NCBI GenBank assembly: GCA_963676105.1
Contig: OY781039.1
Span: 1,800,001-1,832,000, forward strand
Source of the DNA: Erysipelotrichaceae bacterium
GTDB lineage: Bacteria; Bacillota_I; Bacilli_A; Erysipelotrichales; Erysipelotrichaceae
Direction of reading: 5' to 3'
DNA: 32,000 bases
Positions 805 to 27,411 of this stretch are shown here, piece by piece; the stretch's first letter is position 1, and each line of letters starts with the position of its first letter. Position numbers and translations under genes: made by a program. Under the pieces are notes generated by a model. That model had not been told where the DNA came from and ran no database searches. It worked only from the letters and a program-made list of their open reading frames with translations.

Positions 805-1100
805 AAAAATAAATAAACCGTTGAGACGGAGATAACGGTAGATATGACTTTACAGAGAGCCCAAGGTGCTGCGATTTGGGTAAGACACAGTTTATCAAAT
901 GGACCGTTGAGGGTGTAGTGAAAAGCAAGTGCTTATTATTCTACAACGTGAAGAGCTACGTTAGTTGCTCAGGGATATGTTAGTATCCTATAAAAGTGCA
1001 TCGTTTTTTTGATAAGAACGGTGAAACAAGGTGGCACCGCGATACGTGTAATACATCGTCCTTGGCAAAACAAAAAGTTTTGCTTAGGGCGTTTTTTATT
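805..1100 (+). promoter_or_regulatory. T-box riboswitch leader, tryptophan-specific, with intrinsic terminator
   Basis: AGAGA box at 854-858. Distal stem CCCAA/TTGGG encloses the loop GGTGCTGCGA. Specifier loop has TGG (900-902) followed by A, closed by the ACGGT/ACCGT helix. T-box sequence AACAAGGTGGCACCGCG at ~1025-1041. Terminator is a 15-bp stem (1057-1071 paired with 1077-1091, one mismatch) followed by TTTTTTATTT. Confidence 0.85.
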
Positions 1101-1133
1101 TCTAGGCAAACTGACATAAAAGAGGTAAACCTT

Positions 1134-2600
1134 ATGAAAATTGTTCCTAGTCTAGAAGAAGTTAAAGCGATATCTAATGAAAAAAAATACGATATTGTAC
1201 CGCTTAGTTGTGAGATCTTATCTGACTTCACAACACCTTTAGAAGTCTTAAAAATCTTAAAGAATAAATCTAAACATGCTTTTCTACTTGAGTCTGTTCA
1301 AGGACAAGAAAAATGGGGACGTTATACTTTCTTGGGTTATGATCCTAAGTTTGATTTGAACTGCGTTGATGGAGTCATGAGTATTAAAGATGCATCATCG
1401 AAAACTGATAATCCATCTAAAGTATTAAGAGATATCTTAGCTCAATATAAAAGTCCTCAATTTGATTATCTTCCTTCGTTTACAGGTGGTTTAGTAGGTT
1501 ACTTCTCTTATGATTATATTAACTATGCAGAACCTAGCACTAAAGTTAAAGTCGATGATTCAGAAGGTTTTAAAGATGTTGATTTAATGCTCTTTGATAA
1601 AGTCATTGCTTTTGATAACTTTAGACAAAAAATTATATTAATTGTTAATATCCCACTAAAAAATATTGAAGCTGAATATGCGAAAGCCATTGAGAGTTTA
1701 AAAGCTTTAGTTAAACTCTTAAAAACAGGAAAAAAGATTCAAGAAGAAGCTGGCAAGTTAATGGGAGAAGTTACCCCTTTATTTGATAAAGAACATTTCT
1801 GTACTATGGTTGAAAAAGCAAAGCATTATATCCATGAAGGTGATATCTTCCAAATTGTTTTATCGAATCGTTTAAGTGCTCCGTATACTGGTAGTTTACT
1901 AAATGCCTATCGAGTACTTAGAACCATTAATCCTTCTCCTTATATGTTCTATTTCTCTGGAACAGATGTGGAAGTGGCTGGAGCATCTCCAGAAACATTA
2001 GTAAAACTTGATCATAAAGATCTTTATACCTTTCCATTAGCGGGAACACGCAAAAGAGGAAAAACGGAAGAAGAAGATATTGCGTTAGAAAAAGAACTCT
2101 TAGCGGATCCAAAAGAGATTGCTGAACATAATATGTTAGTGGACTTAGGGCGAAATGATTTAGGTAAGATATCTGAGTTTGGATCAGTCCATGTCGATAC
2201 ACTACATTCAATTGAGCGTTTCTCTCACGTTATGCATATAGGATCAACGGTTAAAGGTAAGATTCGTGATGAACACGATGCCTTAGATGCGATTGAAGCC
2301 GTACTACCAGCAGGTACCTTATCAGGAGCACCAAAAATTCGTGCTTGTCAGTTAATAGGTGAATTAGAGAATAATAAACGTGGTATCTATGGTGGTGCCA
2401 TTGGCTACATTGATTTCGCAGGGAATATGGATACCTGCATTGCGATAAGAATTGCATACAAGAAAAACAATACAGTATTTGTACGGTCAGGGGCGGGGAT
2501 TGTTGCCGATAGCGTTCCAGAGAGTGAATACCAAGAATGTATTAATAAAGCACAGGCTGTGATTAATGCTTTAAAACAAGCGGAAGGAGAAGAGCTATGA
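1134..2600 (+). CDS. trpE: anthranilate synthase component I
   Basis: Start moved from ORF-track 996 to ATG 1134, which has SD AAAGAGG at 1119-1125 and lies downstream of the T-box terminator. Motifs: LSNRLS, NPSPYMFY, LAGTRKRG, GRNDLG, GAPKIRA, IYGGAIGY. ATGA overlap with trpG. Confidence 0.93.
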   Translation: MKIVPSLEEVKAISNEKKYDIVPLSCEILSDFTTPLEVLKILKNKSKHAFLLESVQGQEKWGRYTFLGYDPKFDLNCVDGVMSIKDASSKTDNPSKVLRDILAQYKSPQFDYLPSFTGGLVGYFSYDYINYAEPSTKVKVDDSEGFKDVDLMLFDKVIAFDNFRQKIILIVNIPLKNIEAEYAKAIESLKALVKLLKTGKKIQEEAGKLMGEVTPLFDKEHFCTMVEKAKHYIHEGDIFQIVLSNRLSAPYTGSLLNAYRVLRTINPSPYMFYFSGTDVEVAGASPETLVKLDHKDLYTFPLAGTRKRGKTEEEDIALEKELLADPKEIAEHNMLVDLGRNDLGKISEFGSVHVDTLHSIERFSHVMHIGSTVKGKIRDEHDALDAIEAVLPAGTLSGAPKIRACQLIGELENNKRGIYGGAIGYIDFAGNMDTCIAIRIAYKKNNTVFVRSGAGIVADSVPESEYQECINKAQAVINALKQAEGEEL

Positions 2601-3175
2601 TTTTACTCATTGATAATTACGATAGTTTCTCCTATAACCTTTATCAACTCATTGGTGAGATTAATTCTGATATTAAAGTCATTCGAAATGATGAGTTAAC
2701 GGTAGAAGAAATCAAAGCCTTAAACCCGGATCATATTATTTTATCCCCAGGTCCAGGACGACCAGAAGATGCAGGTATTATTGAAGAAGTCGCTAAAACA
2801 CTTAGTCGAAGCATACCTACCTTAGGTGTATGCTTGGGTCATCAAGCGATTTGTGATGTTTATGGAGCCAATATTACGTATGCCAAAGAACTCATGCATG
2901 GTAAACAATCAGAAGTAAGTTTAGATTTAAGTTCAAAGTTATTTAAAGAATGTGATGAAAAAACATTAGTTGCCAGATATCATTCACTGGTTGCCGATGA
3001 GAATACAATTCCTAAAGACTTTATAGTCACATCACTGACTGATGATGGCGTGATTATGGCGATTGAACATAAAGATTATCCAATCTATGGCGTTCAATTT
3101 CATCCAGAATCCATCATGACCCCATTAGGTAAGTTGATGTTGAAGAATTTCTTAGAAATTAAAGGAGAGAAATAA
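2597..3175 (+). CDS. trpG: anthranilate synthase component II (glutamine amidotransferase)
   Basis: Class-I GATase motifs GVCLGHQ and GVQFHPES; position in the trp operon. Confidence 0.92.
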
Positions 3176-3177
3176 AG

Positions 3178-4194
3178 ATGATTAAAGAAGCCATTATAAA
3201 AATAGTTAATAAAGAAGATTTAACATTTGATGAAGCTTACACAGTTATGAATGAAATCATGAGTGGGGAAACATCTGCTATTCAAAATGCAGCTTTCCTT
3301 TCTGCTTTATCAACCAAAAGCGCAAAAGCTGAAACTACTGATGAAATTGCAGGCTGCGCAACAGCGATGAGAGAAAATGCGACCCAAGTGAAAACACCGT
3401 TTGATGTTTTTGAGATTGTAGGAACTGGTGGAGATCACTCTAATAGTTTTAATATTTCTACTACGTCAGCTTTAGTTGCAGCAGCGGGTGGATTAAAAGT
3501 TGCGAAACATGGCAATCGTGCAGCTTCATCAAAAAGCGGAACGGCTGATTGTTTAGAAGCACTTGGTGTAAACATTAACCAAGATCCTGAGAAATGTATA
3601 GAGCTATTAGATAAAGTAGGTATGTGTTTCTTCTTTGCGCAAAAATATCACACATCAATGAAACATGTTGGACCAATCCGTAAGGAACTTGGAATTAGAA
3701 CCGTCTTTAATATTTTAGGACCTCTTACAAATCCTGGATCACCTAAATATCAATTACTAGGTGTTTATGATGAATACTTAGTTGAACCATTGGCAGAAGT
3801 TTTAATGGAACTTGGGGTTAAACGAGGCATGGTAGTTCATGGATTAGATAAGTTAGATGAAATCTCTTTATCTGCGCCAACAAAAATCTGTGAGTTTAAA
3901 GATGGACTTCATAAAACATCTATCATTCAACCCGAAGATTTTGGTTTTGAAAGATGCACTAAAGATGACTTAGTAGGTGGGGAACCACAAGAAAATGCAC
4001 AAATCACATTAGATATTTTAAAAGGTCAAAAAGGTCATAAACGCAATGCGGTACTCCTTAATGCAGGGGCTAGTTTATATATTGGAGGGAAAGCTGAATC
4101 CTTTAAAGAAGGAATTGATTTAGCTGCGTCCATTATTGATTCAGGACAAGCTTTAAAAACACTAGAAGCTTTTGTGGAAATCAGTAATTCATGA
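3178..4194 (+). CDS. trpD: anthranilate phosphoribosyltransferase
   Basis: Motifs IVGTGGD and [15 protein letters not shown]. The start lies 2 nt after the trpG stop. Confidence 0.92.
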
Positions 4195-4973
4195 GCATCT
4201 TAGATGAATTAGCTGATTACGCTAAGGATAGAGTAATTGAAGCAAAGCGTACAATTACGTTAGAAGATATTAAAAGACAAGCTTTAAAAATGCCGAAGAA
4301 AGATTTTGAGTTTGAAAAAGCTTTAAAGAAAAATGATTTATCCTTTATCTGTGAAGTTAAAAAAGCGTCGCCTTCAAAAGGTATCATTGCAGAAGAGTTT
4401 GATGTTCTTCAAATCGCAAAAGACTATGAAAAAGCAGGTGCTGATTGTATCTCATGTTTAACTGAACCAAAGTGGTTTTTAGGCAAGGATGAATATCTAA
4501 AGGAAATATCAAATACAGTTAAGATTCCTGTTCTTCGTAAAGACTTTACCGTAGATGAATATATGATTTATGAAGCACGAGTCTTAGGTGCTTCAGCTAT
4601 ACTACTCATTTGTTCGATCTTGAGTGAAGAACAAATCAAAAACTATATTACGATTGCGGATGGTTTAGGTTTATCCACTTTAGTCGAAGCGCATGATGAT
4701 GATGAAGTTAGTTTAGCGATTAAATGTGGTGCACGAATTATAGGCGTTAATAATCGTAATTTAAAAGACTTTAGTGTTGATACCAATAACAGTAAAAACT
4801 TAAGATCATTAATCCCAAGTAATATTCTCTTTGTCTCTGAGAGTGGTGTAAAATCACATGAAGATATTAATGAAATTAGAGACTTTGGTGCAGATGCCGT
4901 ACTCATTGGTGAAACGCTGATGAAAGCTAGTAATAAAACTCTTAAACTAAAAGAGTTAAAAGGTGAGCTATGA
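4191..4973 (+). CDS. trpC: indole-3-glycerol phosphate synthase
   Basis: Motifs [28 protein letters not shown] overlap with trpD. Confidence 0.92.
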
Positions 4974-5578
4974 CAGTTATTAAACTTTGTGGTTTGAAAC
5001 GAATCGAAGATATTAGAGTTGTTAATGTCTTAAAACCTGACTACATTGGTTTTATCTTTGTCGAAAAAAGTAAACGCTATATTAATCCGATTCAAGCTTA
5101 TGAGCTTAAAAAATCATTAGATAAAAATCTAAAAGTGGTTGGTGTTTTTGTTGATGAGGAAATTGAAATCATTAATGACATGTTTAATATGGGTATCATT
5201 GATCTAGCACAACTACATGGTCATGAAGATGAAGGCTACATTAAAACATTAAAAGATTTGTCACATAAACCAATCATTAAAGCCTTTAGAATTGATTCAA
5301 AAGAAGATGTACTAAAAGCCGAAAAAAGCAGCGCTGATTTTATTCTATTAGATTCAGGAACAGGTGGGACAGGTTCAAGTTTTGATTGGTCACTTATTAA
5401 AGATTTGAAACGTGATTATTTCTTGGCCGGTGGTTTAAATAATGAGAATATATCTGATGCATTAAAAACTTTAAAACCGTATGCAGTAGATGTCAGTAGT
5501 GGCATTGAAACAGATGGTTTTAAAGATAGAGATAAAATGAATGAATTTGTTGAAAAAGTAAGGAGTGTAAATATATGA
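4970..5578 (+). CDS. trpF: phosphoribosylanthranilate isomerase
   Basis: IKLCGL N-terminus, GFIF and LAGGL motifs. ATGA overlaps on both sides. Confidence 0.9.
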
Positions 5579-6765
5579 GAAATCCACATAGTCGATTTGG
5601 TGTACATGGTGGACAATATATCCCTGAGACACTAATGAATGCGGTTATCGAACTTGAGAAGGCTTATAATCACTTCAAAGATGATCCTGATTTTAAAGCA
5701 GAACTTAAAGAACTTTTTGATGAGTATGCAGGTCGTCCTTCAAGACTTTATTATGCGAAAAAAATGACTGAGTATTTAGGTGGCGCAAAAATCTATCTTA
5801 AACGTGAAGATTTAAATCATACTGGGGCTCATAAGATTAATAATGTTTTAGGACAAGCTCTACTCGCAAAGAAAATGGGTAAAACGCGTTTGATTGCGGA
5901 AACAGGTGCAGGCCAACATGGTGTTGCGACCGCAACTGCGGCAGCTTTAATGGGCATGGAATGTGTTGTCTTTATGGGTGAAGAAGATACGATAAGACAA
6001 GCACTTAATGTTTATCGTATGCGTCTGTTAGGCGCGACGGTTATTCCTGTCACAACAGGAACTGCGACATTAAAGGATGCGGTATCTGAAGCGATGCGTG
6101 AGTGGACATCAAGAATTGATGATACCCATTATTGTTTAGGTTCAGTTATGGGACCCCATCCATTTCCAACGATTGTACGGGACTTTCAAGCTGTTATTTC
6201 TCAGGAAATTAAAGAACAGATCTTAGTTAAAGAAGGACGTTTACCTGATACAGTAATTGCCTGTGTTGGTGGTGGATCTAATGCGATTGGAGCTTTCTAT
6301 AATTTTATTGAAGATGAATCTGTTGAACTCATTGGGACAGAGGCTGCTGGACGAGGGATTGATACCTTAGAAACAGCCGCTACGATTAATGTGGGAAGCT
6401 TAGGCATATTCCATGGAATGAAGTCTTATTTCTGCCAAGATAAATATGGGCAAATCGCACCTGTTTATTCCATTTCAGCAGGTCTTGATTATCCAGGTAT
6501 TGGACCTGAACATGCTCATTTACATGATATTGGTCGCGCAAAATATGTACCAATAACGGATGAAGAATCAGTTGTGGCTTTTGAATACCTTTCAAAAACA
6601 GAAGGGATTATTCCAGCCATTGAATCCGCACATGCGGTAGCGTATGCGATGAAACTTGCGCCAACTATGGCTAAAGATAAAATTATCGTAATTAATTTAA
6701 GTGGTCGTGGAGATAAAGATTGCGCTGCGATTGCACGATATAGAGGGGAAGATCTTCATGAGTAA
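5575..6765 (+). CDS. trpB: tryptophan synthase beta chain
   Basis: PLP-lysine motif HTGAHKINN, plus ETGAGQHG and GGGSNA. Confidence 0.95.
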
Positions 6766-7528
6766 TATAAAAAATGCTTTTAAAAATGGTAAAGCCTTTA
6801 TTAGTTTCATTACTGTGGGGGATCCAGATTTAAAAACCTCTAAAGAAGCTATCTTAGAGATGGTTAAAAACGGGACAGATTTAATTGAACTTGGTATTCC
6901 TTTTTCTGACCCGATGGCAGAAGGACCAACCATTCAAAGTGCGAATGTGAGAGCTTTAAAGAACGGGATTACCACTGATGATATTTTTGAATTTGTTAAA
7001 GATATTCGAAAAGAAGTATTTATACCAATGGTCTTTATGACTTATTCTAATGTTGTGTTCTCTTATGGTTCTGAAAAGTTTATTAAGATCTGTTCAGAAA
7101 TAGGGATTGATGGTTTAATACTTCCTGATTGTCCATATGAGGAAAAAGAAGAGTTTAGTGAAATCTGCGAAAAATATGATGTGGACTTAGTTTCATTAAT
7201 TGCGCCAACATCAGAGAATAGAATTGCGATGATTGCCAAAGAAGCCAAAGGTTTTGTGTATTTAGTATCTAGTTTAGGTGTTACTGGAACTCGCTCTGAA
7301 ATCAAAACCGACTTAGAATCGATTGTGAAAGTCGTACGTGAAAATACGGATGTACCTTGCGCCATTGGTTTTGGAATATCAACACCTGAGCAAGCTCAAA
7401 AAATGGCAGCCATTTCAGATGGTGCCATTGTCGGGTCTGCGATTATTAAACTATTAGAAAAACATGGAACAGAAGCACCAAAGTTTATTGGAGAATATGT
7501 TAAATCCATGAAGGATGCATTAAGATAA
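6758..7528 (+). CDS. trpA: tryptophan synthase alpha chain
   Basis: Start moved from 6701 to ATG 6758, which has SD AGAGGGG and an 8-nt overlap with trpB. Motifs [15 protein letters not shown] and GFGIS. Confidence 0.9.
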
Positions 7529-9994: not shown

Positions 9995-11233
9995 TTAATT
10001 ACTATACTTCCAATTCATTAGTTCGATTTTTTCTTTATAGTAGATTATTGCAAGCTTGTACTTACTTCGATTTTCGTAGTAAGTAATTAGTCGATCTAGA
10101 ACAAATTCATAGTTTTCAAAATTTCTACTGTCTTTAGTCATTGAATGAAGTTGAAGGAGTTTCGATTCAATATCAACTTCATCGTGAAAATACTCATTAT
10201 GCACAATTTCCATTTCAAGTTTGTACATTGGATCATTAAAAGTTGATATTGAATTTTGATAGATTTGATTGGCTTCTTTGGTTTGATTTAAATGATATAA
10301 ACTAGAACACTTAATAAAAATTCCATTTTCAGATAGTGTTTGTTGAAGCTCTATTTGTTTTAAATAATCTAATGAGTCTTTATACTCTTTATTTAAAAAT
10401 GAAAACCATGCAAGATTGTAGAGAATAACATATTTGGTGTCTGCATCGTTTGTTGTATTAAGGATTTGTTTATACATTTTTTGTGATGTTCTAAAATGAC
10501 CTAATATTGCGTTAATTGATGCGATATGTACTTGCGTATTTGTGAGTCGTTTTAGATTACGCGTCTTTAGAAAATAATTCTCTGCGATTTCACTCAAGGA
10601 TAAGGCTTTATTTAGTTTCCCATAATACGTATAAATAAGTGATGCATGATAATGAATTAAACCCGCATTACTTTCTATAATGTCGTACTGAAGAGCTATG
10701 TCTATGGTATTGGCTGCTTCTTGAATCTGATTGTTTTTAAGATGTTCAATTGCTTTGTAGTCGTAGTAGAGTTGTTTGAGTTTGTTTTCAAAACAATAGA
10801 TATTATTTAAGACATAATCATAGGCTGTTGAATCATTATAAAGACCTAGTACATAAAGAACATAAAAGACAGTATTGAATTTGTTTAACATATTGGAGTA
10901 ATGGATATATTGAGTAGGAATTCGTATTTTATTAATTAATCTTTCAATTTCTTGATTATTATCATAAACGATGGCTTCCAATAAATTGTTTATATCGTCA
11001 TCCAATTTGTTTTCAATATAGAAAACAGATTCTAAATTAATATCTAATGCTGATGCGATCATTTTTAGATTTTCTTGATTTAAATCTCTCAAACCGATCT
11101 CATATTTAGATAAACTTTGATAACTATAATTCGTTAATTCTGACAAGTCTCTAAGGGTAAGATTTTTATGTTTTCGAGAATCAGAAAGAAGTTTTAAGAT
11201 ATCAATATTTTGAAATAATATTTTGTCGCCCAT
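9995..11233 (-). CDS. XRE-family HTH + TPR-like repeat transcriptional regulator (RRNPP-like architecture)
   Basis: The N-terminal segment 'LTLRDLSELTNYSYQSLSKYEIGLRDLNQENLKMIASALDINLESVFY' is an XRE HTH. The remaining ~330 aa is helical-repeat sequence rich in Y, N and L. 412 aa. Confidence 0.75.
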   Translation of the reverse strand: MGDKILFQNIDILKLLSDSRKHKNLTLRDLSELTNYSYQSLSKYEIGLRDLNQENLKMIASALDINLESVFYIENKLDDDINNLLEAIVYDNNQEIERLINKIRIPTQYIHYSNMLNKFNTVFYVLYVLGLYNDSTAYDYVLNNIYCFENKLKQLYYDYKAIEHLKNNQIQEAANTIDIALQYDIIESNAGLIHYHASLIYTYYGKLNKALSLSEIAENYFLKTRNLKRLTNTQVHIASINAILGHFRTSQKMYKQILNTTNDADTKYVILYNLAWFSFLNKEYKDSLDYLKQIELQQTLSENGIFIKCSSLYHLNQTKEANQIYQNSISTFNDPMYKLEMEIVHNEYFHDEVDIESKLLQLHSMTKDSRNFENYEFVLDRLITYYENRSKYKLAIIYYKEKIELMNWKYSN

Positions 11234-11338
11234 AATTTATTTAATTATACAACTCAATTTCAAAATTTACCGATATTTGTAGACAAGATTTGTTAGAAAA
11301 TTATTTATAATTGAATTATGGGAAAGGTGGGTGGATAA

Positions 11339-11398
11339 ATGATCGTATTCTATTGTTGTGTTATTGATTTATTTGATACGGTATTGCCTAAGTTTTAA
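11339..11398 (+). CDS. 19-codon hydrophobic mini-ORF (MIVFYCCVIDLFDTVLPKF); candidate signalling pro-peptide
   Basis: It is below the ORF-track length cutoff and was found by reading the sequence. SD-like GGAAAGGTGGG at 11321-11331, with ATG 8 nt after it. It is divergent from the HTH-TPR regulator. There is no conservation or expression evidence. Confidence 0.3.
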   Translation: MIVFYCCVIDLFDTVLPKF

Positions 11399-11401
11399 GA
11401 T
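11373..11401 (+). promoter_or_regulatory. putative promoter of the 11451-12727 operon
   Basis: TTGATA (11373-11378), 17 nt, TAAGAT (11396-11401). It lies inside the mini-ORF, ~50 nt upstream of ATG 11451. Confidence 0.4.
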
Positions 11402-11450
11402 TAACTAGTAGTAATTTAAATGCCATAAATATGACAAAGAAAGAGAGTTT

Positions 11451-12107
11451 ATGAAAATTCAAAAAATTTTATTTACTTTATTATTTTTTATTAGTTTAGC
11501 AAGTCCAGTAAGTGCGACTACCGAAGATAAAATTATTGGAGAAAAGTTAGTTACAAATATTGAAATTGATGGGATAAATTATATATATACGCAATATTCA
11601 ACTGAATTAAGTAATTTTACTTTAGTAGATAATGGCGAACAAGTTGATGTATATGAGTATAATTTTCAGACAAATAAACTAACAATGAATAATGCAGCGA
11701 TAGGAAACACAAGTTTTATTTCACCATACAGTAGAGCAGCATCTTGTTCAATACCACTTCTATCTGGATTAAAAGATGAACAAGGAAATTTAGCCGTATA
11801 TGAGGGTTGTGCAACATATACAATTAATGCTGGGGGACCAACAACTAGTGTTATCGCAAATTTAGTTGTTTTGACAATGATAGATGCAGGAATTATTAAG
11901 AATAAAATATTAATAAAACTAGGAACAGCTGCATTACCGACATATTTAAACTACAAAATATCAACAGCGCGTCAACAATATAGATCTAAATACACAATAC
12001 TAAATCCATACACAGGTTTATATAAATACAAACATCTATATAATTCATATTATTTCTGGGCTGATCAACCATGGTTTGGACCTAATAAATCAGTTTGGTG
12101 GTTTTGA
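11451..12107 (+). CDS. secreted protein of unknown function (Sec signal peptide)
   Basis: Signal peptide MKIQKILFTLLFFISLASPVSA|TTEDK. No enzymatic motif recognised. Amphipathic segment TTSVIANLVVLTMIDAGII. C-terminal tail rich in W, Y and F. Confidence 0.7.
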   Translation: MKIQKILFTLLFFISLASPVSATTEDKIIGEKLVTNIEIDGINYIYTQYSTELSNFTLVDNGEQVDVYEYNFQTNKLTMNNAAIGNTSFISPYSRAASCSIPLLSGLKDEQGNLAVYEGCATYTINAGGPTTSVIANLVVLTMIDAGIIKNKILIKLGTAALPTYLNYKISTARQQYRSKYTILNPYTGLYKYKHLYNSYYFWADQPWFGPNKSVWWF

Positions 12108-12358
12108 TGGGTAAGAACTATTGTCCAAATTGCAACACAAAAGTTCCACTTCTTAAACTATTTAAGAATCAGTTTTTTAAAGATTATCAATGTGAAAATT
12201 GCAATACATCATTAAGTCCAAAATTACATGTGCCATTTATTGTAATCATGACCATTTTTATTTCTAGCATTGATGATATCTATTTAAAATCTATATTAGT
12301 GATAATTTATTTTTTTAGTATAGAACCAATTACTGCATACTTAAGTGGATTTAAATGA
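12107..12358 (+). CDS. small CxxC-N19-CxxC zinc-ribbon membrane protein (cxxc_20_cxxc-like)
   Basis: ATG 12107 overlaps the upstream TGA (TGATG) and has a GGTGG SD. CPNC-19 aa-CENC is followed by two hydrophobic helices. The start is moved from the TTG at 12095. Confidence 0.6.
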   Translation: MGKNYCPNCNTKVPLLKLFKNQFFKDYQCENCNTSLSPKLHVPFIVIMTIFISSIDDIYLKSILVIIYFFSIEPITAYLSGFK

Positions 12359-12394
12359 AATTGAACAAAAACTTATTGGTCCAAGTAAATCAGC

Positions 12395-12727
12395 GTGGAC
12401 GTTCTAAAAAGTATCTATGAAAAAATACAATGCCCAAATTGTAAACATGATTTATCCTTAAAACAGAAATCATTGTTGATTTATCAAAAAATGGGTAAAA
12501 ACCATTGTGTTAAGTGTGATCATTGTCATAGTGCTCTGAGTTTTAAGGGCAACAATCAAATTTTACCTCTTATGTTCTTGTTTACGAGTTATGTTTTATA
12601 TTATCTCAAAGATAAAATTCTATTGTTTGTCATAATTGTTATATTCTTGTTTATATTAAAGGATACAGTTGCATTGTATCGTAACGGATTATATGTTTGT
12701 GTTACAGAGGAAAAAACAACTAAATAA
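12395..12727 (+). CDS. small CxxC-N21-CxxC zinc-ribbon membrane protein; tandem paralogue-like partner of the previous gene
   Basis: CPNC-21 aa-CVKC(DHC) is followed by two hydrophobic helices. The only in-frame start is GTG 12395, which has no clear SD, so the start is uncertain. Confidence 0.5.
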   Translation: MDVLKSIYEKIQCPNCKHDLSLKQKSLLIYQKMGKNHCVKCDHCHSALSFKGNNQILPLMFLFTSYVLYYLKDKILLFVIIVIFLFILKDTVALYRNGLYVCVTEEKTTK

Positions 12728-12781
12728 AGCCTACACAAAATTCAATATAAAAGTGGTGCTCATTTGAAATGAACCCTGAAT

Positions 12782-12818
12782 AGTAGATATTATATAAAAA
12801 GGTATCTACTTTTTATTT
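12782..12818 (+). terminator. intrinsic terminator of the 11451-12727 operon
   Basis: AGTAGATA (12782-12789) pairs with TATCTACT (12803-12810), followed by TTTTATTT. The 13-nt loop is long for a terminator. Confidence 0.5.
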
Positions 12819-12912
12819 GTGATTATTCATGATAAAAATCTCACTAGATATAACTTTTAAGGAAACTTAATTGTCCATAAAGTTGTAGAATAAAGTTAAT
12901 GAGGAAGTCAGT

Positions 12913-13890
12913 ATGAGTTCACAAAAATCAGTCAAAATTTTAGAGGTCATGAAGCTCTTGTTAGAAAAGAGTGATGATGAACACCCTTTAAGTGTGCAAG
13001 ATATTATTTCTGAACTGTCTAAACTAGGGATTGAGAGTGAACGTAAAAGCATCTATCAATATATGGATCAGTTAGAAGACTATGGTTTAGATATTATTAA
13101 AACCAAGAAGATTGCGAACTATTACCATGTGGGTGAGCGTGATTTTCAATTGGCAGAATTAAAACTCTTGGTTGATGCAGTTCAATTCTCGAAGTTTATT
13201 ACAAGGGAAAAGAGTATTGAACTGATTGAAAAGATTAAAGGTTTAACGTCTGTTTATCAAGCAGATAAACTTATACGTAACGATTATATTTCTGATCGTC
13301 TAAAGACAAGCAATACATCCATATACTTTAATGTTGATGCGATACATGAAGCGATAGTAAATAAACGATGGTTACAATTCAAATACTTTGAATATGGATT
13401 AGATAAAGAAAGACACTATCGCCGTAATGGTGAGTTCTATACTATGATTCCAGAATTTTTGTGTTGGGATGATGAAAAATATTATTGTGTGATGTATCAT
13501 GAAGCACATGATGATCACGTCATTTTCAGAGTTGATAAAATGCGTGAAGTTTCAGTTATGCATAAATCACATCATCATCAAAGATCACAAGCAGATTTTG
13601 AGAAATACTGCACTCGTATCTTTAGTATGTTTCAAGGTGAAGAAAAACGTGTTCAGCTTGAATTTGATAAATCATTAACATCGGTTGTTTTTGACCGATT
13701 TGGTTTAGATGTAGAAATAAAGGAAGAAAAAGAAAATAGTTTTGTGATTGAAGAATCCGTTATGGTTTCGCAAACTTTCTTTTCATGGTTATTTCAATTT
13801 GGAAGTTCAGCTAAAATATTAGGACCACAAGAAGTCAAAGATGCAGCACTAGATTTGCTTAGAAAGAATTGGGAGAATTATGAATCCTAA
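12913..13890 (+). CDS. WYL-domain transcriptional regulator (N-terminal HTH, WYL, C-terminal extension)
   Basis: GAGGAA SD 6 nt upstream. N-terminal HTH 'ILEVMKLLLEKSDDEHPLSVQDIISELSKLGIESERKSIYQYMDQLEDYGLDI'. WYL-like core 'WLQFKYFEYG...FYTMIPEFLCWDDEKYYCVMY'. Confidence 0.8.
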   Translation: MSSQKSVKILEVMKLLLEKSDDEHPLSVQDIISELSKLGIESERKSIYQYMDQLEDYGLDIIKTKKIANYYHVGERDFQLAELKLLVDAVQFSKFITREKSIELIEKIKGLTSVYQADKLIRNDYISDRLKTSNTSIYFNVDAIHEAIVNKRWLQFKYFEYGLDKERHYRRNGEFYTMIPEFLCWDDEKYYCVMYHEAHDDHVIFRVDKMREVSVMHKSHHHQRSQADFEKYCTRIFSMFQGEEKRVQLEFDKSLTSVVFDRFGLDVEIKEEKENSFVIEESVMVSQTFFSWLFQFGSSAKILGPQEVKDAALDLLRKNWENYES

Positions 13891-14761
13891 ACAAAATCGA
13901 CAACTAGCGATTCAATACCATATCCTTCGTCGTTTGATTCAAGATGATTCAAAACTTCATGCGAAGATTAATAAGGAAAATATTGCTGAACTATTAGATG
14001 CGAAGAAATTCTATGATAAATATTTTGAACCACAACATAATGCGGCTCAATTACCAATGCTTTTTAAACTCGTTCAAAGAGAAACTGAAGCAGCTTTTAA
14101 ACGAATATCGAATAAAGTTCATATCATCCATAAATATGATGAACGTTATCCTAAATGTATTCTTCAAGATTTTAGAGAAGATGCCCCTATGTTTCTTTAT
14201 TTGAGTGGTGGGGTAGATGTTTTAGATCGAAAATATAAAAAAATCTCATTGTTTACCAATTCTAAGAGTAGTGATGAGTATATAGAAGAAACGTTAAAAT
14301 TACTGAAACAATTAAAAGATTCATCCTATGTTGTACTAATCCAATTTAATACACTTATGGATAATCTTATTTTCCTAGAATGTCAAAAACAAGGTATTCC
14401 ATGCATTGTTGTATTTAGAGGTCCTGTTACTAAAGATCTTGAGAATGCAGTAAAGAAATATAACCCCCGATTTAAACGTGGATCAAAGGGTATGAATATA
14501 ATGAGTATCACTGGTCCTTTTAATGAGGTTTTAAATGAGAAAACACAATCTCATTTAATGAATTCAATGGGGCGCGTTAGTGTTTTATTTTCAGATGCGT
14601 TAAATGATGTGAATCATGAAGCTATTAAGAATAACTTGTACTGGCGTAAGCCTTCGCTTATGCCACTATTAAATGGGTCACAGTACCCCTCATCAGAATT
14701 GTTGTTTACACTTGAAAAAAAGGAAGATTTTAAGATAACCATTGACCAATTAAGTGCGTAA
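13880..14761 (+). CDS. divergent DprA/Smf-like (SLOG-fold) protein with degenerate core motifs
   Basis: 11-nt overlap with the WYL gene. A by-eye alignment to DprA holds: 'YDERYPKCILQDFREDAPMFLYLSGGVDVLD' matches the DprA 'D..YP..L..I.D.P..L...G'. The canonical 'VGSR' and 'SG.A.GID..AH' positions read 'LFTNSK' and 'IQFNTLMDNLIFLE'. Confidence 0.55.
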   Translation: MNPKQNRQLAIQYHILRRLIQDDSKLHAKINKENIAELLDAKKFYDKYFEPQHNAAQLPMLFKLVQRETEAAFKRISNKVHIIHKYDERYPKCILQDFREDAPMFLYLSGGVDVLDRKYKKISLFTNSKSSDEYIEETLKLLKQLKDSSYVVLIQFNTLMDNLIFLECQKQGIPCIVVFRGPVTKDLENAVKKYNPRFKRGSKGMNIMSITGPFNEVLNEKTQSHLMNSMGRVSVLFSDALNDVNHEAIKNNLYWRKPSLMPLLNGSQYPSSELLFTLEKKEDFKITIDQLSA

Positions 14762-14815
14762 TTTAATTTGTGAAAAAAGACTAAATTATCATTTGTTAAA
14801 TTATTGTCAAAAGCC

Positions 14816-14844
14816 TTGAAAGTCTGTGGGGACAGGTCTATACT
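14816..14844 (+). promoter_or_regulatory. putative promoter of the CoADR-fusion gene
   Basis: TTGAAA (14816-14821), 17 nt, TATACT (14839-14844). The spacer contains the G-tract pseudo-palindrome CTGTGGGGACAG. Confidence 0.5.
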
Positions 14845-14880
14845 TTAATGGTGTGTTAATAAAAACAAGAAAGGATGCAT

Positions 14881-26706: not shown

Positions 26707-27411
26707 CTATACAATATGAAGTTTATTAAATACAAGATCAGACTCTTCTTTAATATTTAAGACTGATAATAAATCGAACTGAGTAGACTTAGGATTTATC
26801 TGAATTAGTTTTGCGTTTTTATTCATAAATTCGAAATAACTACCATATGAACCCTTTGCGCCAATCACAATAACTAAATTAGCCTTTCTCATTAAGTCTA
26901 TGGCTAATTGATAATTCTTAGCGTGTAAGCCAATGCTTGAATAGACAGGGAAGGAAACAACTATACCATTACAAACATCACATCTTGGTGCTTTACCATG
27001 ATTCCAAATTTGAACATCATTAAATTCTTTCTTGCATTTAACACATTGGTTAATCGCATAGCTACCTTGAATCTCAGCTACATTTTGTGATCCAGCAAGT
27101 GAATGTAAACAATCAATGTTTGTTGTGATTATCCCTTTTATAAAAGATTTTTGTTCTAATTCAGCGAGCTTATAGTGAGTTAGAGTTGGTCCTGTTTTAA
27201 ACATTGCTCTTAGAAAAGTATTTTCTAATATCTTATAACTTCTTTCTGGTTGTAGTTTTACTAAACATTCTAATGCTGTTTGGGCTACTTCAATAAAATT
27301 CATGTGCTCCATGTCTTTTATTCCTGAAGAATTTGAAATGCCTGCACCTGTCACAACCACAGTGAATTTGCTGTTTCTAATAAATTCTTCTAATTTAGTT
27401 ATGTCGTTCAA
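26707..27411 (-). CDS. Sir2-family (sirtuin-like) protein with non-canonical active-site residues
   Basis: TTG start 3 nt after the upstream stop. Motifs GAGISNSSGI, TTNIDCLH and a CVKC...CDVC zinc ribbon. The canonical 'H-G' catalytic His position reads VAEIQGS, and 'DFR' reads DME. Confidence 0.7.
   Translation of the reverse strand: MNDITKLEEFIRNSKFTVVVTGAGISNSSGIKDMEHMNFIEVAQTALECLVKLQPERSYKILENTFLRAMFKTGPTLTHYKLAELEQKSFIKGIITTNIDCLHSLAGSQNVAEIQGSYAINQCVKCKKEFNDVQIWNHGKAPRCDVCNGIVVSFPVYSSIGLHAKNYQLAIDLMRKANLVIVIGAKGSYGSYFEFMNKNAKLIQINPKSTQFDLLSVLNIKEESDLVFNKLHIV

Follow-up and report, generated by a model that had tools for sequence, protein, structure and literature searches.

The window analysed here is a stretch of 32,000 nucleotides (nt) from the chromosome of an Erysipelotrichaceae bacterium (GenBank assembly GCA_963676105.1, contig OY781039.1, positions 1,800,001 to 1,832,000). 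Within it, the gene for a 325-amino-acid (aa) WYL-domain transcription regulator overlaps the gene for a 293-aa protein derived from the DNA-processing protein DprA. The two genes recur as neighbours throughout one bacterial clade, and the DprA-derived protein lacks both signature motifs of single-stranded DNA (ssDNA) binding by DprA and has evolved under purifying selection. The reading that we favour, tentatively and at a little under an even chance, is that the pair forms an autoregulated, probably ssDNA-responsive WYL operon, the output of which is a re-purposed DprA scaffold without the canonical ssDNA pocket.

Ancestry and fold of the DprA-like protein

The orthologues of the 293-aa protein, hereafter the DprA-like protein, fall into clade A, to which the window belongs (47-85% identity to the window protein), clade B (~40%) and clade C (27-29%). 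Taken alone, the window protein scored 20.1 bits (E = 3.8e-4) against the Pfam family DNA_processg_A (PF02481), i.e., below the gathering cut-off of 29.6 bits, in a match spanning only profile positions 5-108 of 212, and its sole PADLOC matches were ShosA (22.8 bits, 1.2e-5) and PsyrA (20.3 bits, 6e-5). No NCBIfam family matched either protein of the pair. A direct search of the PDB with the DprA-like sequence gave nothing meaningful (a proteasome ATPase at E = 0.16 only), and a clade A profile found no match in the same database. A profile of clades A, B and C, to which the divergent orthologues had been added, did reach ShosA (6.5e-6) and Streptococcus pneumoniae DprA (0.015). Clade C provided the connection to DprA: its members score 49.7-75.9 bits on DNA_processg_A, above the cut-off, and directly match Helicobacter pylori DprA, ShosA and S. 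pneumoniae DprA, with one of them labelled by NCBI as DNA-processing protein DprA. The window protein aligns with the clade C orthologues over its full length (E = 1e-38).

The AlphaFold model of the DprA-like protein (predicted local distance difference test, pLDDT, 76) has five N-terminal helices, followed from residue 104 by a domain of alternating strands and helices. Its top Foldseek matches were ShosA (PDB 8zva, 1.7e-6) and S. pneumoniae DprA (3uqz, 2.8e-5), in alignments of 296-320 columns that include the N-domain, and both outranked Moco-carrier and LOG structures. The predicted layout is thus a SAM-like helical N-domain (approximately residues 1-78) and then a DprA-type Rossmann domain. 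On the clade C matches and the fold matches, the protein is DprA-derived, with the predicted SAM-plus-Rossmann layout of Firmicutes. This agrees with a first-pass annotation of the same DNA, which had traced the second protein along the DprA/Smf scaffold. The same annotation had invoked the SLOG nucleotide-sensor fold, a suggestion that fared less well given the Foldseek ranking and the absence from the DprA-like protein of the PGGxGTxxE motif of non-DprA SLOG ligand sensors; Pfam LDcluster4 was matched only faintly, and in clade C only. The ligand pocket is the very part that has been rebuilt, though the fold matches favour DprA and ShosA over the SLOG ligand sensors.

Remodelling of the ssDNA pocket

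Canonical DprA binds ssDNA, loads RecA and is needed for transformation. The ssDNA-binding DprA domain carries two signatures, G-[STA]-R and [FLY]xxR[ND], and mutation of the signature residues lowers affinity more than 100-fold (Wang et al., PMC3950713). In H. pylori DprA, motif 1 corresponds to G50-R52, in the loop past the third strand, and motif 2 to F140-N144, in helix alpha-6 (PMC3950713). Neither motif is present in the window protein, which reads F-T-N-S-K where clade C has V-G-S-R-S and H. pylori DprA has I-G-T-R-R. The peptides YDERYPKCILQDFREDAPMFLYLSGG, LFTNSK and IQFNTLMDNLIFLE all occur in its translation. In the alignment they occupy the same columns as VGSRSAN and SGFDxxLDTxxQ in the syntenic orthologues, and they likewise match up with GTR and SG..G.D of H. 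pylori DprA and ShosA. The orthologue alignment thereby confirms that the canonical DprA motifs have been lost at the positions of VGSR and SG.A.GID..AH, where the first-pass annotation had placed the loss.

The three clades form a series at these sites. Clade C has retained GSR at motif 1, with SGFDxxLDT as its second-site motif alongside VGSRSAN, and lacks motif 2 (D-I-E-R-T in locus L016; no arginine at that place in L012). Clade B has TT[IL]NR at motif 1 and also lacks motif 2. Clade A has F[TS]N.. at motif 1 and, in the window protein, N-E-K-T-Q at motif 2, and it has gained an invariant basic loop, FKRGxKG, at residues 198-204, together with a raised isoelectric point (9.1-9.6). Between clades, residues 1-120, i.e., the N-domain and the entry to the Rossmann domain, are 36-57% identical, and residues 121-182, which hold the pocket motifs, are 14-24% identical between clades versus 53-68% within them.

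Within clades, the ratio of nonsynonymous to synonymous substitution rates (dN/dS) of the DprA-like gene is 0.014-0.067, equal to or below that of the WYL gene (0.025-0.12) and of the downstream coenzyme A (CoA)-disulfide-reductase gene, and decay of the DprA-like gene into a pseudogene was ruled out by these values. Between clades, the DprA-like protein has diverged much faster than the WYL protein (28% vs 46% and 42% vs 57% identity). The low ratios within clades and the fast divergence between them therefore suggest an episodic remodelling followed by constraint, which fits a changed function. That the protein is an ordinary housekeeping DprA is unlikely from its sequence, because its Pfam score of 20 bits falls short of 29.6 and both ssDNA signature motifs are absent; the first-pass annotation had come to the same view. 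No second DprA is encoded in the 32-kb window, which is part of a 1.96-Mb chromosome.

The WYL regulator

The 325-aa protein exceeds the Pfam gathering cut-offs for both WYL (32.4 bits; cut-off 21.8) and WCX (26.6 bits; cut-off 23.9), has a weak N-terminal HTH_11 match (17.6 bits) and matches the PADLOC WYL model at E = 2.5e-21. A PDB search with the single sequence gave no match, and a profile built from 26 family members found DriD (6.5e-8) and PafBC (0.047). The AlphaFold model (pLDDT 81.5) matches the fold of DriD (9e-13) and PafBC (4e-12) over its full length, and that of BrxR and CapW more weakly (~1e-6). The protein is a winged helix-turn-helix (wHTH)-WYL-WCX regulator, nearest to DriD and PafBC. 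Profile and fold thus agree with the first-pass annotation, which had called the protein a WYL regulator and had named the ssDNA-activated PafBC and DriD as examples of such regulators.

The WYL domain of DriD, PafBC and CapW has ssDNA as its ligand (PMC9186387, PMC11804915, PMC11662680). When the DriD contact residues Y168, R176, R178, Y192, R204 and R207 were compared with the WYL protein in a profile alignment, only the equivalents of Y192 (Y191) and R207 (R206) were clearly kept, and R204 aligned with a valine. The invariant residues Y158 and R170 of the WYL protein lie near DriD Y168 and R176/R178, with a different loop length, and R170/R171 may substitute for the DriD arginines. The RWHVR motif of CapW is absent from the WYL protein, which has KYYCVM at the equivalent strand.

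Anatomy and putative control of the two-gene unit

The features of the unit are listed in Table 1. Direct reading of the sequence shows that the two open reading frames (ORFs) share 11 nt (13880-13890, ATGAATCCTAA), as the first-pass annotation had stated, and that the Shine-Dalgarno sequence of the DprA-like gene sits within the 3' end of the WYL gene. Overlaps of 8-14 nt are found in clades A and B, and short gaps of 12-51 nt in clade C. The terminator-like hairpin upstream has 10 pairs, is A+T-rich (-10.5 kcal/mol, z = -2.44) and is followed by UUUUUAUUU; it closes a set of inserted genes and marks the 5' bound of the unit. A consensus terminator scan missed it because it contains too few G-C pairs. 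Downstream, a promoter at 14816-14844 (TTGAAA-17-TATACT), conserved in relatives, serves the next gene. The proposed bracketing of the pair by a terminator and a separate promoter is therefore in agreement with both the hairpin fold and this promoter, and recurrence of the pair at 29 other loci argues that the two-gene unit is not due to chance. Rfam gave no match within or beside the unit.

Table 1. Features of the WYL/DprA-like unit, in window coordinates
Feature	Position	Strand	Basis
WYL gene (wHTH-WYL-WCX regulator, 325 aa)	12913-13890	+	ORF
DprA-like gene (DprA-derived protein, 293 aa)	13880-14761	+	ORF
Translational-coupling junction	13871-13890	+	Shine-Dalgarno GGGAG 13871-13875; DprA-like start ATG at 13880; WYL stop TAA 13888-13890
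Terminator-like hairpin and U-run	12777-12818	+	RNA fold, direct reading
Putative promoter and operator	12871-12891	+	two TGTmCA boxes, TTGTCCAtaaagTTGTAGAAT

The DprA-like gene has the WYL gene on one side and the CoA-disulfide-reductase fusion gene on the other. The pair adjoins no toxin gene of the PRTase, RecQ-like or any other type, and neither a PRTase domain (as in the shosT toxin) nor a helicase gene (as in the psyrT toxin) occurs in the window. The statement in the first-pass annotation that no obvious effector lies in cis thus stands.

The putative control element has the form TTGTCCA-taaag-TTGTAGA, the second box running into a -10-like TAGAAT at 12886-12891. A homologous 10-mer, GTTGTACAAT, is present as a single copy in 10 related loci and in every case lies 20-45 nt ahead of the WYL start. 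The loci of clade A carry a pair of TGTmCA boxes with a spacing of five nt, the second of which runs into the -10 element, and this two-box form is also kept in L003, L001, L002 and L022. Further TGTmCA box pairs in the window show no excess over chance expectation. The arrangement fits an operon that is autoregulated at this putative operator. The WYL gene of the window has a normal GAGGA ribosome-binding site. In clade B (L005-L011, e.g., L007 8994-9018) the conserved -10 element, TACAAT, lies only ~6-12 nt from the WYL start and there is no Shine-Dalgarno sequence, which suggests that the clade B WYL mRNAs are leaderless or near-leaderless.

Conservation, synteny and inheritance

A genome scan found the DprA-like gene in 14 species-level genomes, all of them metagenome-assembled genomes of Erysipelotrichaceae/Erysipelotrichales, and two Logan contigs and 13 metagenome contigs were further carriers. 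All 30 loci with the DprA-like gene (the window and 29 others, a count that includes a few truncated contigs and some probable duplicates) have the WYL gene as its immediate upstream neighbour. Protein searches with the DprA-like protein returned 14 matches among 5.8 billion sequences and eight clusters among 1.84 billion representatives. One of these clusters, P0020 (2756 aa), was rejected as a relative: it matches DprA-like residues 70-114 five times, its Pfam content is a patchwork of unrelated fragments (CoV_NSP8, FLILHELTA, FYTT), and it is almost certainly an artificial or chimeric database entry. Outside the family, a profile search with clades B and C reached just two proteins, each a canonical DprA that stands alone and has no WYL gene beside it.

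All loci occupy one chromosomal site, in which the M20 peptidase gene (where present) is followed by the pair and then by the CoA-disulfide-reductase fusion gene, with trp, two-component, MsrB and Maf genes in the surroundings. No phage or mobile-element genes surround the pair in the window or the related loci, and its G+C content is just a little lower than in the flanks. Phage and plasmid collections contain no close homologue, only distant DprA matches of at most 31% identity, and the PHROG matches were to families of unassigned function only; a mobile origin of the present locus was ruled out by the distance of the phage and plasmid matches. From the single site, the absence of mobile genes, the near-flank G+C content and the lack of a phage or plasmid homologue we therefore conclude that the pair is vertically inherited and confined to one Erysipelotrichaceae clade.

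These results bear on the genomic setting considered in the first-pass annotation. The defence-island or prophage flanks that it had envisaged are not found, since core metabolic and regulatory genes flank the pair in all relatives, and the adjacency that it proposed to count across lineages is restricted to the one clade. The neighbourhood of the two genes, the loss of which in other genomes it would have taken as refutation, held at every locus that carries the DprA-like gene. No WYL-DprA pairing was found in the searchable literature, coverage of which was incomplete.

Loss of the DprA-like gene and outside relatives of the WYL regulator

In a sister lineage represented by L022 (6001-7134) and L023 (4629-5762), the WYL gene stands at the same syntenic site and is followed after 153 nt by the reductase gene. 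No remnant of the DprA-like gene was detected there by tblastn, which points to a clean deletion. In this lineage the WYL protein shares 72% identity with its L002 counterpart and the reductase 90%, at least 23 contigs encode precisely this WYL protein, and the promoter element is kept as TGTCCA-N6-TGTACAAT. Because the sister lineage has kept the WYL gene after a clean deletion, the WYL regulator does not depend on the DprA-like protein.

The nearest WYL homologues outside the clade are 44-50% identical, about as close to the window protein as are the clade C WYL proteins. Defence genes lie beside them in all three contexts examined, namely a type I restriction-modification (R-M) system with GmrSD, Mrr with DUF499, and type I R-M with pPIWI-RE. 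To judge from these neighbours, WYL proteins of this subfamily generally act as gatekeepers of cargo genes that lie downstream and vary from case to case, the cargo here being the DprA-like gene.

The downstream reductase gene

The gene downstream of the pair encodes a CoA-disulfide reductase-rhodanese-TusA-DsrE fusion. Its own promoter is conserved and has a spacer element, GTGGGGACAG, that differs from the TGTmCA boxes; this element lies between the -35 and -10 of the reductase promoter (14762-14874) in the window, L003 and L002. Ahead of the reductase gene, the window contains no TGTmCA pair. Clade C has a terminator and an ArsR-type regulator gene between the two-gene unit and the reductase gene, and in L016, L033, L035 and L036 the distance is 2.4-3.4 kb, with several unrelated genes between; L034 probably also has intervening genes, its contig ending first. 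The reductase gene is a separate unit from the pair. A functional link between them was considered and is unlikely in view of the separate promoter, the intervening genes and the missing TGTmCA pair. In clade C (L012-L015, L033), the small ArsR-type HTH gene before the reductase gene is accompanied by a perfect palindrome, AGTATATTAGA-N5-TCTAATATACT. The reductase is a probable persulfide-stress gene, the regulator of which may have been swapped between clades.

Other features of the window

Upstream of the pair, a block of ~2.7 kb and low G+C content (0.25-0.29) at 9995-12727 encodes a 412-aa XRE-HTH regulator (minus strand), two small membrane proteins with zinc ribbons and a 218-aa protein, the N-terminus of which resembles a signal peptide. 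The block is missing from the closest relative, L003, in which the M20 peptidase gene abuts the WYL gene. The block looks like a strain-specific insertion and is possibly a peptide-signalling or bacteriocin-like cassette. Near the start of the window, a T-box leader at 812-1066 (96.7 bits; gathering score 93) precedes a complete trpEGDCFBA operon (996-7528), beside which, at the window edge, ORF 8-754 encodes a full-length PRiA4_ORF3 (plasmid pRiA4b ORF-3-like) domain. At 26707-27411 (minus strand), a gene for a SIR2-family protein adjoins a gene for an NAD(P)-binding NmrA-like protein.

Discussion

In the mechanism that we propose, a homodimer-type WYL regulator most likely binds the TGTmCA boxes that overlap its own -10 element, and the binding of short ssDNA, arising from DNA damage or invading DNA, by the WYL domain most likely shifts its activity. 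The latter step is proposed by analogy, since ssDNA is the ligand of every solved member with a known ligand, i.e., DriD, PafBC and CapW. The DprA-like gene would be the translationally coupled, regulated output, the product of which appears to have kept the SAM-like N-domain and the Rossmann scaffold. Starting from the GSR of clade C, the ssDNA pocket would have been rebuilt stepwise through the TTxNR of clade B to the F[TS]N and FKRGxKG loop of clade A, and this stepwise rebuilding under purifying selection suggests that the protein probably no longer binds ssDNA via the canonical DprA pocket. It may act by protein-protein contact through the N-domain and the junction surface, RecA and the WYL regulator being candidate partners, or alternatively may use a new nucleic-acid contact. 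Of the sensor/regulator pair envisaged in the first-pass annotation, the family assignments and the motif loss stand, and nothing indicates a sensor role for the DprA-like protein.

A further reading, which we rate as improbable, is that selection turned the DprA scaffold, once a recombination mediator that bound ssDNA, into a dedicated protein partner for a WYL factor that senses ssDNA, the two forming a two-protein switch for DNA damage or foreign DNA. Such a switch would possibly report RecA or recombination status to transcription, with the three clades preserving intermediate steps of the conversion.

Several observations weigh against an autoregulated, ssDNA-responsive operon with a re-purposed output. 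The ssDNA-contact residues R176, R178 and R204 of DriD are not aligned to arginines in the WYL protein, and for this reason ssDNA sensing by the latter is, by analogy with its solved relatives, plausible only. Since the sister lineage retains the WYL gene without the DprA-like gene, the regulator must also serve some purpose outside this operon. The clade A proteins are basic (isoelectric point 9.1-9.6), and some nucleic-acid binding by them may therefore persist. At a pLDDT of 76 the model of the DprA-like protein is moderately confident, with a template-modelling (TM) score of ~0.5 to DprA and ShosA, and the new clade A loop falls below pLDDT 50. Finally, the TGTmCA element may simply be the promoter itself.

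Among the alternatives, the DprA-like protein could bind the WYL regulator directly, as a co-sensor, anti-activator or shut-off factor, much as S. pneumoniae DprA binds the response regulator ComE and closes competence. The coupling by overlap suggests stoichiometric co-production, the part that is constant across clades is the SAM-like N-domain and junction and not the ligand pocket, the WYL gene is directly upstream at every DprA-like locus, and the action of DprA on a transcription factor has a precedent in pneumococcal competence shut-off (e.g., PMC7665891). We nevertheless regard a direct complex as unlikely, given that the sister lineage has an intact and abundant WYL gene with its promoter boxes after the deletion, and that close WYL relatives elsewhere lack any DprA-like partner. 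Distinctly unlikely, in our judgement, is a domesticated or minimal anti-phage module, in which a WYL gatekeeper would control a ShosA/PsyrA-like DprA acting on phage ssDNA or recombination, or else an orphaned antitoxin. ShosA and PsyrA are indeed the sole PADLOC matches of the DprA-like protein, ShosA is its best match by structure and by profile, the outside relatives of the WYL protein adjoin defence genes, and the presence of the DprA-like gene varies between sister lineages. Against such a module, there is no toxin gene beside the pair, the site is the same core-genome site at all loci (trp, peptidase, reductase, two-component) without mobile-element genes, selection is strongly purifying with no diversifying signal, and phage and plasmid collections hold no close relatives.

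Another possibility is that this strongly diverged protein is simply the DprA of its lineage, which came under the control of the WYL regulator and continues to serve transformation or recombinational repair. Clade C lies above the Pfam DprA cut-off, with one member named as DprA by NCBI, and the architecture is that of a two-domain Firmicute DprA. On the Pfam DprA model, however, the 50-76 bits of clade C are far below what typical DprA proteins reach, and the window protein is far under the cut-off. Given that the window protein has neither ssDNA signature, that even the clade C proteins are without motif 2, that the gene was deleted in one lineage, and that the family is an isolated island in the protein databases, we consider a diverged DprA very improbable. 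We think it equally improbable that the real target of the WYL regulator is the adjacent reductase fusion gene, acting in sulfur or persulfide stress, and that the DprA-like gene is a mere passenger. In favour, the reductase gene is a neighbour of the WYL gene at every locus, including the lineage without the DprA-like gene, and the ArsR-type regulator gene found ahead of the clade C reductase is missing from clades A and B. This adjacency is of little weight because the whole neighbourhood is syntenic, and the reductase has its own conserved promoter with a spacer element unlike the TGTmCA boxes, no TGTmCA pair upstream of it in the window and, in clade C, a terminator and a dedicated regulator gene between it and the pair; in L016, L033, L035 and L036 the intervening genes span 2.4-3.4 kb.

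The re-purposed scaffold can be set beside known DprA relatives. ShosA, the DprA-like antitoxin of ShosTA (PDB 8zva, 9vzo), is the best match by fold (1.7e-6, 320 columns) and by profile (6.5e-6), shares the SAM-like N-domain and Rossmann domain, and represents a paralogue of DprA diverted from transformation to another use. ShosA binds both ssDNA and RecA, and its gene lies beside that of the PRTase toxin ShosT (PMC11961720, PMC12961424), whereas the DprA-like gene has no toxin and has a WYL regulator as its partner; identity is ~16%, and ShosA keeps the GTR and RRN motifs, both lost from the window protein. With canonical DprA/Smf (PF02481; S. pneumoniae 3uqz, H. pylori 4ljk/4ljr) the protein shares descent via clade C, the same two-domain layout as in S. 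pneumoniae, the Rossmann entry YP..L..[DE].P..L...G and a KP...P near the C-terminus. It differs in lacking G-[STA]-R, [FLY]xxR[ND], SGxxxGxD and SG[ST]..TA, in falling below the Pfam cut-off, and in being coupled to a transcription factor in one clade, whereas DprA is nearly universal.

The WYL protein, for its part, finds its best sequence-profile and fold matches in DriD and PafBC, with which it shares the order wHTH-linker-WYL-WCX; it is only 14-18% identical to them, and its putative operator overlaps the -10 element, an arrangement more typical of a repressor. It can also be compared with BrxR and CapW, WYL repressors acting as gatekeepers of BREX, CBASS and other defence operons: the regulator gene comes first and the cargo follows, and the nearest homologues of the WYL protein outside the clade head restriction and pPIWI islands. 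CapW, moreover, senses ssDNA (PMC11662680). Here, however, the fold match to BrxR and CapW is weaker (~1e-6), the sequence profile gave no match, the RWHVR motif is absent, and the only cargo is one DprA-like gene, which sits at a stable site of the core genome.

DprA paralogues have only recently acquired functions outside transformation, as the antitoxins ShosA and PsyrA, and WYL regulators are emerging as general ssDNA sensors in DNA-damage and defence responses. The locus described here joins the two families in a manner not found in the searchable literature. Its reach is limited to ~30 known loci, all in uncultured Erysipelotrichaceae with no cultured host. The clades offer a natural series, from GSR-bearing through intermediate to fully remodelled proteins, in which a nucleotide-binding Rossmann pocket has been rebuilt under purifying selection. 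If the pair does act as a damage- or phage-responsive switch, it would represent a new output class of WYL regulation in Firmicutes.

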